In this document: positions 2,571-5,675 of the stretch, piece after piece | How positions within the stretch are numbered: the stretch's first letter is position 1 | How the letters are laid out: each line of letters opens with the position of its first letter | Assembly: GCA_031283585.1 (NCBI GenBank) | Contig: JAITBP010000001.1 | Coordinates: forward strand, 1-32,000 | DNA: 32,000 nt | DNA from: Puniceicoccales bacterium | GTDB lineage: Bacteria; Verrucomicrobiota; Verrucomicrobiia; Opitutales; LL51 | Direction of reading: 5' to 3' | Notes under the pieces: model-generated | What the model was told of the DNA's origin: nothing | The model's database searches: none | The model's input: the letters and a program-made list of their open reading frames with translations, nothing else | Program-made: the position numbers and the translations under genes

Positions 2571-5500
2571 ATGGTTGTAAGAGATAGATTATGTGAGGAT
2601 TTGGCCATTAAGAATTTTGTTGCCACACCAAGCGATATGAAGCCGAATTTCGATTGGGCTTCGGTGGTACGCAACGATGTATTGGGGCCAAATCAAACCT
2701 TTGCAGAGGAAATTGCTAACAAAGTCGGCGGTGCAATAACCGACCTTATGCTAGCCACAAGCAATGATGAAATTTTTTCTGAAAAAAATAGATCGCTGGT
2801 GGCCAATGTGGTGCGTCAGGTATGTGCAGAGGTTTCTGATGATGAAGATGTTAATATTCATGATATTATTTCTGATGTGCTGGTGCGGAATTCCTTCCAT
2901 GACATCGCTAGATGTTTTTTGATGAAGTGTGCCTATGTTAATGACAGGGCACTGGACACGGACATGGATATTGTCGATGTGAAATTGATAAGAAGGAACG
3001 GTAAGATTGTTCCTTGGAATAGGTTCAAAGTGGAACATGCCGTACGAAGAGCATTTTTGGCTCAATGCTGTGATCCGGCGCCGTCGAGGGTTATTTCAGA
3101 AAATGTCACAGAACGTGTAATTTCATCGGGTATGAAATTTATCCACATCGAACAGGTTCAGGATTTGGTCCAGGAAGAGCTGATGAAAAGTGGTAATTTC
3201 AAGATTGCCGAAGCCTATATTTTATATCGAGCCGAGAGAGCTAAGCTGCGCAATGGCGACAATAGGGAATCTGTTGTGTCCTACGGCCAGGATACATTGC
3301 AAGGTGCGATGATTCTTGTAAAAATGGCCGATGGGTCGGTTGTCTTTTGGGACGGTAGCGATCTCCGCGAAAGAATTAGTTTTGCCAGGATTGGACTGGA
3401 TTTTGCAATTGGGTCCGAGGAAATAATGACAGCTCTTAGAGACAATATCCCCGGGGAATTATCCGAGGTAGAGCTGGAAAGGCATATTTTGTCAAATGCC
3501 TGCAAATTGGTAAGAAAAGATCCAAATTTTTCCGTGTTTGCTTCAAGGTTATCCTTGTCCTATTTATACCAGAACATCTTTGGGTGGAATCCATTGGACA
3601 AAGATATCGGAAATCTACGTAGGCTACATCGGGATTATTTTGTCCGATACATCTCCAGGGCTGTTGCACTGGGATTGCTTGACGATGACATGCTAACCTA
3701 TGATCTGCCGAAACTCGCTGATTGCCTTTCAATTAGTGCTGACATGGATTTCGATATAGTTGCGACCATGTCGTTGACCGATAACTATCTTCTTAGGGAT
3801 TCCAACACTGGTAAATTGCTTGAAACACCCCAGATACTTTGGATGCGGGTTGCCATGGGTGTTTTCCTAAAGGAAGAAATCGACCGAGATGACAAGGCGA
3901 TAGCGTTGTACAATTTATTCAAAGATAGGATGTTTTGTCTATCGGAACAGGCGCTGTATTTCGCCGGCACCAGGAATGCTCAGATGATGTCTGACTACAT
4001 ATATTCTGTCAGCGATGATATTGAAAGCATTCTGAATAAATGTGTTATCGAAAGTGCATTGATTTCGAGATTGGGTGGTAATCTGGGTGGGTCCTGGAGT
4101 GCCATAAGAGGAAGTGGTAGTAAAATTAAAGGGACAAGAGGCGTTACGAACGGTGTTATTCCTTTTCTACAGCTACATAAACATCAGCTTTCCATTATGA
4201 CCAGTGGTGCTGGCAATATGGTGGGAATTGGTTGTGTTAGCTGTGAAATATGGCACTCGGATATATTCGACTTCATTGGATTTAGCAAGGAAAAGTCCAA
4301 GTCATCGGACTGCGATAGGTTGAATACTTCGGTACTGATTCCGGATCTGTTTCTGCGAAGGCTAAAGGAACAAAAATCATGGACCTTGTTTAAAGTTGAT
4401 GATGCCAAGGCACTTATAAAGACCTATGGGGCTGAGTTTGAAGTGGAATACGAAAAACTAGAATGCCTGGCGAAGGAGAATAAAATTTGGAGTAAGGTTA
4501 TAAAGGCCAATGAGTTATGGTTTGCGTTACTCAGAAATATGTTTGAGACCGGAAATCCAAGAATATTGTTTAAAGACACCTGCAATGTATCCGATATGAC
4601 ATCGGGATGTGTCCAGAGCGCCGGTCTGTGCCAATCGGTGCTTTTGCCGGCCGGTGATGACAGATCGATTGCCTGTGGTTCCGGATCGGTGGTTATATCC
4701 AGGTATGTCGATGATAACGGTGATGTTGATTTTCCCAGGCTTCGTAAAGACATGGAAATATGCATTCGGGCAATGGATTCGATGATCGATGCCAACTATT
4801 TCCCCACCGAAAGCTCGGTGGCCATGACCAGGGCCTATAGACCTATTGGCCTGGGCATGACAGGTCTGCAGAATGCGTTATATAAATTGAATTATGAATT
4901 CGACTCGGATGAGGCCGTAGAATTTGCCTCTTTGTGTGCGCGCAAAATACTACTTTTTGCCATGGATATATCCTGCGAACTGGCCAGGGAAAAGGGCAGA
5001 TTCGACAAATTTGAGTGTTCTCTCTGGGGAAAACACAGGTTACCATTCGATTTTTACGAGTATAACGCCAGGTTTGATGCGGGAGATAACGAAATGATCA
5101 GACATATCAGGGAAACTATGGATAACTCTGGTCTGAGAAATTGTTCCCTGTTGGCCTATTCCACCGAGGAACGGGTATCAAAACTGATGGGATGTTTCCC
5201 TGGCATATATCCGGCAACGAAGAACATATTCAAAAAGTCCTACGGTGGCGGTGATGTGCTTTTGTTCGTTAACCCTGCCATGGTGAAGACCTTGAAACAA
5301 GAGGATATTTGGACCGATGATATTTTTGAGCAGATCTGTTATTTCGATGGTGAAATCGCAGCCATCGACGAAATTCCAGATGATATAAAAGCAAAATTCA
5401 AAACAGCCTACTCCATTGATACCGAGAAATTGATAAAAATGTATAAAAATCTTCAGATCTGGGTCGATCAGGGCATAGCAGTTAGGTTGTACTTGGGCAG

Positions 5501-5675
5501 CAGCGACATAAATAAAATTTCCCATATGTATATCAAATGCTGGGAAAGCGGAATAAAATCCATTTGCGAGTTAAAATCCAGTGCGCCACCTAGGCCCAAT
5601 TTGCCAAACCAGACCAATACCGGTGGTTCGAATATTGCCATGAGTATGCTTCAGAACTACCTATATACCATATAA
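2571..5675 (+). CDS. nrdA: Ribonucleotide reductase class I large-subunit (NrdA) homologue with three ATP-cone-like N-terminal modules; the catalytic residues appear to be lost
   Basis: 1034-aa ORF. The ATP-cone signature is clearest at VKLIRRNGKIVPWNRFKVEHAVRRAF...IHIEQVQDLVQEELMKSGNFKIAEAYILYRAERAKLR. The core is collinear with E. coli NrdA: ETPQ, DDIESI (vs DSLDSI), GLCQSV (vs NLCLEI), RPIGLGMTG, GLRN and SGIKSICEL (vs FGVKTLYYQ). Confidence 0.85.
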   Translation: MVVRDRLCEDLAIKNFVATPSDMKPNFDWASVVRNDVLGPNQTFAEEIANKVGGAITDLMLATSNDEIFSEKNRSLVANVVRQVCAEVSDDEDVNIHDIISDVLVRNSFHDIARCFLMKCAYVNDRALDTDMDIVDVKLIRRNGKIVPWNRFKVEHAVRRAFLAQCCDPAPSRVISENVTERVISSGMKFIHIEQVQDLVQEELMKSGNFKIAEAYILYRAERAKLRNGDNRESVVSYGQDTLQGAMILVKMADGSVVFWDGSDLRERISFARIGLDFAIGSEEIMTALRDNIPGELSEVELERHILSNACKLVRKDPNFSVFASRLSLSYLYQNIFGWNPLDKDIGNLRRLHRDYFVRYISRAVALGLLDDDMLTYDLPKLADCLSISADMDFDIVATMSLTDNYLLRDSNTGKLLETPQILWMRVAMGVFLKEEIDRDDKAIALYNLFKDRMFCLSEQALYFAGTRNAQMMSDYIYSVSDDIESILNKCVIESALISRLGGNLGGSWSAIRGSGSKIKGTRGVTNGVIPFLQLHKHQLSIMTSGAGNMVGIGCVSCEIWHSDIFDFIGFSKEKSKSSDCDRLNTSVLIPDLFLRRLKEQKSWTLFKVDDAKALIKTYGAEFEVEYEKLECLAKENKIWSKVIKANELWFALLRNMFETGNPRILFKDTCNVSDMTSGCVQSAGLCQSVLLPAGDDRSIACGSGSVVISRYVDDNGDVDFPRLRKDMEICIRAMDSMIDANYFPTESSVAMTRAYRPIGLGMTGLQNALYKLNYEFDSDEAVEFASLCARKILLFAMDISCELAREKGRFDKFECSLWGKHRLPFDFYEYNARFDAGDNEMIRHIRETMDNSGLRNCSLLAYSTEERVSKLMGCFPGIYPATKNIFKKSYGGGDVLLFVNPAMVKTLKQEDIWTDDIFEQICYFDGEIAAIDEIPDDIKAKFKTAYSIDTEKLIKMYKNLQIWVDQGIAVRLYLGSSDINKISHMYIKCWESGIKSICELKSSAPPRPNLPNQTNTGGSNIAMSMLQNYLYTI

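Follow-up and report, generated by a model that had tools for sequence, protein, structure and literature searches.

A ribonucleotide reductase large-subunit homologue of termite-gut Puniceicoccales, predicted to be catalytically dead, keeps conserved allosteric nucleotide sites

A 32,000-nucleotide stretch of a Puniceicoccales metagenome-assembled genome (MAG; contig JAITBP010000001.1, positions 1 to 32,000; the whole stretch is called the window here) carries, at 2571-5675, a gene for a homologue of NrdA, the large (alpha) subunit of class I ribonucleotide reductase (RNR). The encoded protein is predicted to be unable to bind or reduce a ribonucleotide, since the residues for catalysis, substrate binding, radical transfer and re-reduction are gone. 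Judged by its residues, the catalytic pocket is dismantled and both allosteric nucleotide sites appear preserved. Selection maintains the gene and constrains most strongly the ATP-cone and the specificity site, the site for deoxyribonucleoside triphosphate (dNTP) effectors at the dimer interface. With a probability of roughly 60%, we read the protein as a pseudoenzyme kept as a sensor, buffer or regulator tied to dNTP supply, which would still bind ATP or dATP as well as dNTPs and would have arisen after the loss of nrdB in an anaerobe using the class III enzyme NrdD.

The course of events proposed is as follows. An anaerobic termite-gut Puniceicoccales lineage would have lost nrdB and come to depend on NrdD, and its class I alpha subunit would have turned into a pseudoenzyme. 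The protein would still dimerise, its cone occupied by ATP or dATP and its specificity site by a dNTP, and would act as a sensor or buffer of the nucleotide pool. Its output, nucleotide-dependent oligomerisation or the binding of a partner, would bear on dNTP supply or DNA replication. A first-pass annotation of the window had proposed a protein that can no longer reduce nucleotides and keeps its nucleotide-sensing modules. That proposal gained support from the residue losses, from the loss of Cys439 in two orthologues, from the selection acting on the gene and from the pattern of constraint; the regulatory function itself we infer.

The gene and the domains of its product lie in the window as follows.

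2571..5675, plus strand: putative NrdA-like pseudoenzyme gene, an intact open reading frame (ORF) with an ATG start, 1034 aa plus stop; Pfam PF02867 (E 4e-115), PF00317 and PF03477
2571..2978, plus strand: N-terminal helical domain, aa 1-136, all-helical in the AlphaFold2 model, without a Pfam match, common to canonical Verrucomicrobiota NrdA
2979..3254, plus strand: bona fide ATP-cone, aa 137-228; Pfam PF03477 at aa 139-224, 75 bits (cut-off 25.8), profile positions 3-87 of 88
3303..3590, plus strand: second, degenerate cone-like module, aa 245-340, a beta-hairpin and helices in the AlphaFold2 model
3747..3977, plus strand: Ribonuc_red_lgN all-alpha domain, aa 393-469; Pfam PF00317, E 1.1e-14
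3990..5564, plus strand: ten-stranded alpha/beta barrel, aa 474-998; Pfam PF02867, fold kept, catalytic centre degenerate

The product is identical to NCBI MDR2735224.1, which is labelled 'ribonucleoside-diphosphate reductase subunit alpha [Puniceicoccales bacterium]'. Its nearest solved relative by sequence was the multi-cone class Ia NrdA of Pseudomonas aeruginosa (5im3, E 4e-135), with human and yeast R1 next in rank. From an alignment of 50 sequences, an AlphaFold2 model was obtained (predicted local distance difference test score, pLDDT, 79; predicted template-modelling score 0.72), which was searched with Foldseek and matched 5im3 at E 2e-60 and human RRM1 with a template-modelling score of 0.90-0.91 and a root-mean-square deviation of 2.6-3.1 A. 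On this model, the protein folds like a class I RNR large subunit, and the Pfam domains agree with this assignment, which had been made at first from the sequence by eye.

The accompanying claim of extra ATP-cone modules stood for one module, the cone that passes the Pfam cut-off, but not in the same sense for the others. The module at aa 245-340 occupies the position of the E. coli ATP-cone, or of cone 2 in P. aeruginosa, and aligns to E. coli residues 7-91; the E. coli residues K9, R10 and K21 are not conserved in it, and it is degenerate and cone-like. The helical domain at aa 1-136 is possibly a degenerate ATP-cone; its residues K24, W29, G53 and A113 were invariant in 50 sequences. Pfam and NCBIfam scans returned RNR domains alone, with no Zn-ribbon DNA-binding domain of the NrdR type, and the Pfam scan gave no signal peptide, RIP homotypic interaction motif (RHIM)-like motif or added domain. 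With NCBIfam, the protein scored 597 bits against the subfamily equivalog NF005544 (cut-off 965; 1256 for the canonical relative P0033) and passed the generic TIGR02506 at 422.6 bits (cut-off 341). The window protein and its dead relatives ranged from 394 to 524 bits for TIGR02506 and failed NF005544. Their public 'NrdA' label is explained by the generic cut-off, which they still pass.

Catalytic residues were mapped in three ways: a MAFFT alignment with 119 homologues (120 sequences including the window protein), a MAFFT L-INS-i alignment including E. coli NrdA (761/761 identical to PDB 2r1r_A), and the AlphaFold2 model set against PDB structures. Canonical Verrucomicrobiota NrdAs carry C225, S-N-L-C439-x-E441, C462, Y730-Y731 and a tail ending in C-E-x-C-Q in 92/92 cases. 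At the same sites, the window protein has D, A-G-L-C-x-S, C and C-E, and no tail cysteines. The sites concerned are listed below.

3993..3995, plus strand: Asp475 codon in place of the redox Cys225; 3984-4004 translates to MMSDYIY
4197..4229, plus strand: degenerate loop 2, aa 543-553; Q294 to S545, R298 to M550; AlphaFold2 pLDDT below 50
4617..4640, plus strand: finger-loop motif SAGLCQSV in place of SSNLCTEI, by codon translation; N437 to G685, E441 to S689, C439 kept as C687
4674..4676, plus strand: Cys702, the kept equivalent of Cys462; Cys in all 120 homologues
5163..5177, plus strand: TEERV in place of the N-terminus of the diphosphate-binding helix (E. coli P621-S625; PTATI in canonical relatives)
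5565..5570, plus strand: Cys999-Glu1000 in place of the radical-transfer pair Tyr730-Tyr731 (YY in 92/92 canonical proteins); 5556-5576 translates to KSICELK
5580..5672, plus strand: fast-evolving C-terminal tail without the shuttle Cys pair, ending ...NIAMSMLQNYLYTI; canonical end C-E-x-C-Q

Two orthologues, P0002 and P0003, are 76-77% identical to the window protein, and the three are called the trio below. The Cys225 site was Cys in 92/92 canonical proteins, Ser in 25/25 proteins of a sister clade and Asp in 3/3 of the trio. At the site of the radical Cys439, both orthologues have Gly, within (A/V)GPGHS. Alignment with E. coli NrdA showed further changes at substrate contacts, T209 to E459 and G253 to N504, and three new acidic side chains are predicted to stand where the substrate phosphates would sit. 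The pLDDT of the model fell below 50 precisely at loop 2 (542-550), the finger loop (675-694) and the C-tail. The four changes that the first-pass annotation had read from an ungapped alignment by eye, namely Cys225 to Asp475, SNLC.E to AGLCQS with Asn437 and Glu441 lost and Cys439 kept, Tyr730-Tyr731 to Cys-Glu, and the missing C-terminal shuttle pair, all held in the alignments and at the level of the codons checked. Neither the MAFFT alignments nor the structural model altered the residue mapping or restored the canonical residues.

The allosteric sites presented a different pattern. The basic residues of the ATP-cone, R141, R142 and K153 (E. coli K9, R10 and K21), were invariant in all 120 homologues. 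The specificity-site residues D482, R513, I519, K520 and F532 (E. coli D232, R262, I268, R269 and F281) were identical to those of canonical Verrucomicrobiota NrdA, and lie in one kept segment.

3996..4190, plus strand: specificity-site and loop 1 region, aa 476-540, kept by residue identity to canonical Verrucomicrobiota NrdA

Selection was estimated as pairwise dN/dS (ratio of nonsynonymous to synonymous substitution rates; Nei-Gojobori method, NG86) between the window gene and the two orthologues. Whole-gene dN/dS was 0.085-0.097 among the trio pairs, the ratios being approximate because dS exceeds 1. Over 3.1 kb, dN was 0.12-0.15, which is incompatible with neutrality despite the saturation of dS, and the ORFs are intact at 1034-1038 codons in the three genomes. 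For neighbours in the same genomes, dN/dS was 0.083-0.104 (miaB), 0.082-0.095 (dnaG) and 0.02-0.04 (lysS and rpoD). This comparison among relatives indicates purifying selection on a par with that on miaB and dnaG.

Constraint is not spread evenly along the protein. Regional dN/dS, estimated from 31-96 codons, was 0.05-0.06 for the ATP-cone, 0.03 for the second cone-like module, 0.03-0.06 for aa 476-560 (specificity site, loops 1-2), 0.16-0.26 for the N-terminal domain (aa 1-136), 0.14-0.45 for the finger loop (aa 670-705) and 0.38-0.66 for the C-tail, against 0.08-0.10 for the whole barrel. Of the positions at which the canonical clade and the sister non-canonical clade each show conservation of 95% or more, the trio kept 25/25 in the ATP-cone, 4/14 in the finger loop and 23/37 in aa 471-560, and the positions lost in the last segment are substrate contacts.

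The dead NrdA is not a one-off, and in this respect the first-pass annotation underestimated the scope of the finding: the protein belongs to a clade of 28 clusters, and 13 more dead clusters came to light. The 28 protein clusters of the non-canonical clade comprise the trio and 25 others, mostly from termite-gut Puniceicoccales MAGs. Isolates in a GTDB scan bear names such as Gsp477_bin142, Cc175_bin98 and Nc350_bin44, and the whole-genome shotgun prefixes JAIR-JAIT (JAIRJQ-JAITXW) belong to the accession range that covers the termite-gut MAGs published by Mies et al. 2024 (PMC11257099). Identity is 52-90% within the 25 other clusters and about 41% between them and either the trio or canonical NrdA. 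In a neighbour-joining (NJ) tree, a method not robust to long branches, the 28 clusters form one clade with the trio sister to the rest. Common to all 28 are the replacement of C225 by S or D and of Y731 by D or E, a variable Y730 and the loss of the tail cysteines. The 25 sister clusters keep T209, Q294, R298, C439, E441 and C462, with N437 kept in 11 and PTRKI at the phosphate site. At ten positions, C789 and R523 among them, the 28 non-canonical proteins all share a residue that differs from the canonical one.

Accelerated evolution of the trio, which would give it a long branch, was ruled out by comparing other proteins between the same lineages. The trio's 41% identity reflects lineage distance, because DnaG likewise shows 41%, and RpoD 65%. 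The two orthologues, in other MAGs, lie in the same order nrdA-like, lysS, miaB, wzy, rpoD, dnaG as the window gene, and rpoD-dnaG lies near the gene in both the trio and the sister lineages, which supports orthology.

A profile of the 28 proteins was also run against 1.84 billion representatives, with clusters at 50% identity. After the two clusters representing this clade came at least 13 further NrdA-like clusters without catalytic residues (P0246, P0247, P0249, P0251, P0252, P0262, P0267, P0271, P0280, P0281, P0291, P0292 and P0331; loci L090, L091 and L172), with finger loops such as TSVGSE, SGYWGD and SSLFGE and no YY. An above-threshold ATP-cone was present in 10/10 of those scanned with Pfam (48-133 bits), and the specificity-site and loop 1 motifs were kept in 13/13. 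Where members are named, they come from MAGs of termite Puniceicoccales and from one MAG of a groundwater Verrucomicrobia bacterium. A TLC (PF03219) nucleotide translocase is encoded 2 kb from P0246, which also adjoins dciA and a CMP/dCMP-type deaminase; P0249 is near tmk and a pyrimidine-nucleoside phosphorylase. More than one origin is likely, since canonical NrdA is a closer relative of several of these clusters than the trio is. An NJ tree uniting all dead clusters would imply a single origin, but we distrust it as likely long-branch attraction.

Gene context sets the non-canonical genes apart from canonical ones, within the flanks of at most 10 kb that the MAGs allow. In canonical Verrucomicrobiota loci, nrdB stood immediately upstream of nrdA in 60/61 cases, the exception beginning at a contig end; in the flanks of non-canonical loci it was found in 0/22. 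The gene following the window's nrdA-like gene is lysS and not nrdB, as first noted.

5758..7215, plus strand: lysS, downstream neighbour; NCBIfam TIGR00499, 549 bits (cut-off 427.6); followed by miaB

All three orthologous loci have the order nrdA-like, lysS, miaB, and tblastn with NrdB and NrdD found neither in the 32 kb window nor in the orthologous loci. In 6/22 non-canonical loci, all of the 'PNLC' subclade, nrdD lies directly upstream on the same strand at a gap of about 150-200 bp. There it holds the slot that nrdB has in canonical operons, often with an iron superoxide dismutase (Fe-SOD) gene downstream. Three contexts thus occur in three subclades (nrdD, nrdA-like, sod; Na+/H+ antiporter, nrdA-like, Mur-ligase-like, SufBD; nrdA-like, lysS, miaB), and we set the neighbourhood aside as a guide to function because it is weakly informative.

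As a separate observation, an Fe/Mn superoxide dismutase gene lies directly upstream of nrdB-nrdA in several Verrucomicrobiales genomes (L057, L065, L073 and L080); in the nrdD-linked subclade (L004, L011, L013 and L022), it directly follows the dead nrdA. The sod-nrd linkage appears old.

The region in front of the window gene is itself conserved.

2245..2570, plus strand: conserved upstream leader or promoter region; 77% mean column identity in three genomes with saturated synonymous sites; no NrdR box

It contains an imperfect palindrome, ATTCATTGA-N4-TCAATGGAT, at 2454-2475, and its conserved part is overlapped by a minus-strand ORF (2245-2430) for a hydrophobic product of 61 aa. These roughly 330 nt could be a regulatory leader or a small gene. 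A scan for NrdR boxes gave none upstream of the window gene, and the sole match in the window, at 929-944, was at chance level. Apart from a tRNA-Met gene (1946-2020, minus strand), window positions 1-2570 form 2.5 kb without an ORF longer than 88 aa, unusual in an otherwise dense window, and tblastn detected no nrdD or nrdB remnant there.

The class III enzyme of the same clade shows a change of its own. Aligned termite-clade NrdDs had a 4-residue deletion and lacked the K-R-D-G hairpin in 11/11 cases, including those adjacent to or sharing a contig with a dead NrdA. Seven scanned with Pfam gave 0-28 bits for the ATP-cone, with profile positions 1-16 missing (examples with a degenerate cone are L004 7695-9845, P0123, P0129, P0155, P0162, P0170 and P0197, among others). 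Three other Opitutales NrdDs scored 71-75 bits for the Pfam cone, and six such NrdDs show the hairpin by alignment. The nearest environmental NrdDs matched an intact cone in 80/80 cases, with the hairpin motif in at least 64/78.

Several explanations compete with a pseudoenzyme that senses or buffers nucleotides. The degenerate NrdD cone, together with the nrdD adjacency in one subclade, is the basis for a speculative one that we hold tentatively and think improbable on balance: the dead NrdA would be a trans-acting allosteric subunit lending its working ATP-cone, and perhaps its dNTP site, to a class III NrdD whose own cone has decayed. Cone-to-cone docking dependent on dATP could then switch NrdD off. 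dATP-loaded ATP-cones do pair with each other in P. aeruginosa NrdA and Leeuwenhoekiella blandensis NrdB. The position of nrdD in nrdB's canonical slot in six sister-clade loci also speaks for it, as do the decay of the NrdD cone in the termite clade, set against intact cones in other Opitutales and environmental NrdDs, and the perfect conservation of the dead NrdA's own cone (25/25). In L004, moreover, two NrdR-box-like sites stand in tandem, 32 bp apart, solely upstream of nrdD. However, the adjacency is confined to one subclade (6/22 loci), and in the window's lineage no nrdD lies within reach and none was found for it. The support consists of adjacency and correlation, not interaction, and many NrdDs naturally have no functional cone and need no substitute.

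Candidates for an NrdD in the genomes of the trio were rejected. P0162 shares the window's SRR run and P0197 comes from the Joint Genome Institute (JGI) sample of P0002, 1448 accessions away. Their contigs have a GC content of 0.48-0.50 against 0.38-0.42 for the trio, and P0162 is 86% identical to another lineage's NrdD; both belong to other Puniceicoccales. A scan of metagenome contigs with the NrdD alignment gave matches of at most 62% identity, from non-termite samples, which served solely as the ATP-cone control.

Less likely again is a neofunctionalised protein unrelated to nucleotide sensing. Its role could be structural or lie in interaction with the host, or the remodelled barrel could have acquired a new enzyme activity that needs no radical. 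Constraint persists on the barrel (dN/dS 0.08-0.10), and the ten positions invariant across the 28 proteins would fit such a role. Genes for secretion systems occur in these lineages (in the window, a secretin with a type III secretion N0 domain; in relatives, CesT and needle matches), a TLC transporter lies beside P0246, and herpesvirus R1 homologues offer a precedent (PMC5469499, PMC11772975). Nevertheless, conservation is highest precisely at the two allosteric sites for nucleotides and, within the trio, lowest in the remodelled pocket, and the Pfam scan revealed none of the added motifs or domains that host interaction might use.

That the gene is a relic heading for loss, useless after nrdB disappeared and not yet disrupted, seems very improbable. 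Catalytic residues were lost stepwise, the sister clade keeping C439 and E441, with N437 in 11/25, the window protein only C439 and its orthologues none, and the ORF-free 2.5 kb just upstream could be taken as a sign of decay. Against this, three orthologues at dS above 1 keep ORFs of 1034-1038 codons at a dN/dS of about 0.09, equal to that of essential neighbours; the clade spans 28 clusters at 52-90% identity; and the constraint is patterned rather than uniform. A still-working RNR with unconventional residues, reductant or radical source is the least credible reading: C687 and C702 (C439 and C462) are present and the generic TIGR02506 is passed, but there is no Tyr-Tyr path, nrdB, Asn437, Glu441 or contact for substrate phosphate, ribose or base, the phosphate pocket is acidic, the finger loop has pLDDT below 50, NF005544 is missed by a wide margin, and orthologues under the same selection have Gly at C439.

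The preferred reading, a pseudoenzyme retained for nucleotide sensing or buffering, also has points to its disadvantage. The function of its ATP-cone and specificity site is predicted from the conservation of residues. The dN/dS ratios come from saturated dS and the regional values from few codons. The strong conservation of the whole barrel would equally fit a new catalytic or structural role. The neighbourhood differs among subclades, and the window's lineage has neither a nearby nrdD nor an NrdR box. Finally, tblastn of the window and orthologous loci and the accession linking of NrdD matches assigned no other RNR to the window's genome.

Other features of the window were recorded. A 691-aa orphan on the minus strand (13313-15388) has no Pfam match and shows 31-35% identity among the three orthologous loci, against 75-93% for its neighbours; with a dN/dS of 0.21-0.27 it is fast-evolving and lineage-specific. 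At 29476-31863 (minus strand) lies a secretin with a Salmonella pathogenicity island 1 (SPI-1) type III secretion N0 domain, and relatives carry a CesT-family chaperone and a weak type III secretion needle match (L015 7670-8188; L005 1087-1650). These genes point to a type III secretion system in these termite-gut Puniceicoccales, which would fit an association with host cells. A GTG-start ORF at 24438-25364 overlaps the 3' part of tRNA-Phe (24395-24470), and because of this overlap its true start is probably further downstream. Besides the tRNA-Met gene at 1946-2020 (minus strand), the window holds a second one at 16279-16354 (plus strand).

No de novo route to dNTPs exists other than RNR, whose allosteric logic is a textbook example. 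If the preferred reading is true, a bacterial alpha subunit has been kept solely for its allosteric sites, and the ATP-cone and specificity apparatus would have a use apart from catalysis. A natural 'allostery-only' RNR would become available for experiments, and anaerobes using class III RNR might possess an additional, so far unknown layer of dNTP-pool control. Should control of NrdD in trans prove true, the protein would be the first cross-class RNR regulator and a member of a wider, unrecognised family of ATP-cone-bearing dead NrdAs in Verrucomicrobiota. The finding also bears on annotation. As the dead proteins are labelled functional, metabolic reconstructions of termite-gut symbionts would wrongly infer an aerobic class I RNR, and the same misannotation probably affects the 13 other dead clusters. 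The literature searched contained no description of a catalytically dead bacterial NrdA, in line with the initial remark that this is not an established class for bacterial NrdA. We describe the proteins as a recurrent, previously undescribed kind of bacterial pseudoenzyme.

Among known systems, the closest are the multi-cone class Ia NrdAs (P. aeruginosa 5im3; Verrucomicrobiota and Chlamydia; NF005544 and NF009029). They have the same domain order, that is, N-terminal extension, functional cone, degenerate cone, lgN and barrel, and gave the top sequence and structure match; the specificity-site and ATP-cone residues of the window protein are identical to those of Verrucomicrobiota NrdA. In contrast to them, the window protein has no chemistry residues, no nrdB in its locus and a score far below the NF005544 cut-off, and the constraint on it now falls on the allosteric sites instead of the centre of the barrel. 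By its sequence, it fails on six defining features of a functional class Ia NrdA.

Yeast Rnr4 is a catalytically inert small-subunit paralogue and an obligatory partner of the active Rnr2. It resembles the window protein as an RNR-derived pseudoenzyme kept by selection, but Rnr4 is derived from beta, whereas the window protein is a dead alpha without an evident active class I partner.

The inactive R1 homologues of betaherpesviruses (UL45 of human cytomegalovirus, M45 of murine cytomegalovirus and that of human herpesvirus 6B) have lost catalytic residues and were kept for another function (PMC5469499, PMC11772975). Like the window protein, they are RNR large-subunit homologues that have lost catalytic residues, have no small-subunit partner and are retained. 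They are, however, viral proteins, and motifs added at the N-terminus let them act on innate-immunity proteins of the host. To our knowledge, no conserved ATP-cone or specificity site has been described in them, whereas the bacterial window protein keeps both.

NrdR, a repressor made of an ATP-cone and a Zn-ribbon, and the ATP-cone carried on NrdB in L. blandensis (PMC5794259) offer a functional analogy, in that a portable ATP/dATP switch controls RNR from another polypeptide, and our regulator hypothesis leans on this likeness. The window protein would differ from both in having no DNA-binding domain and in its carrier, a whole dead alpha subunit with a dNTP specificity site; if it regulates a target at all, this would be a class III enzyme.

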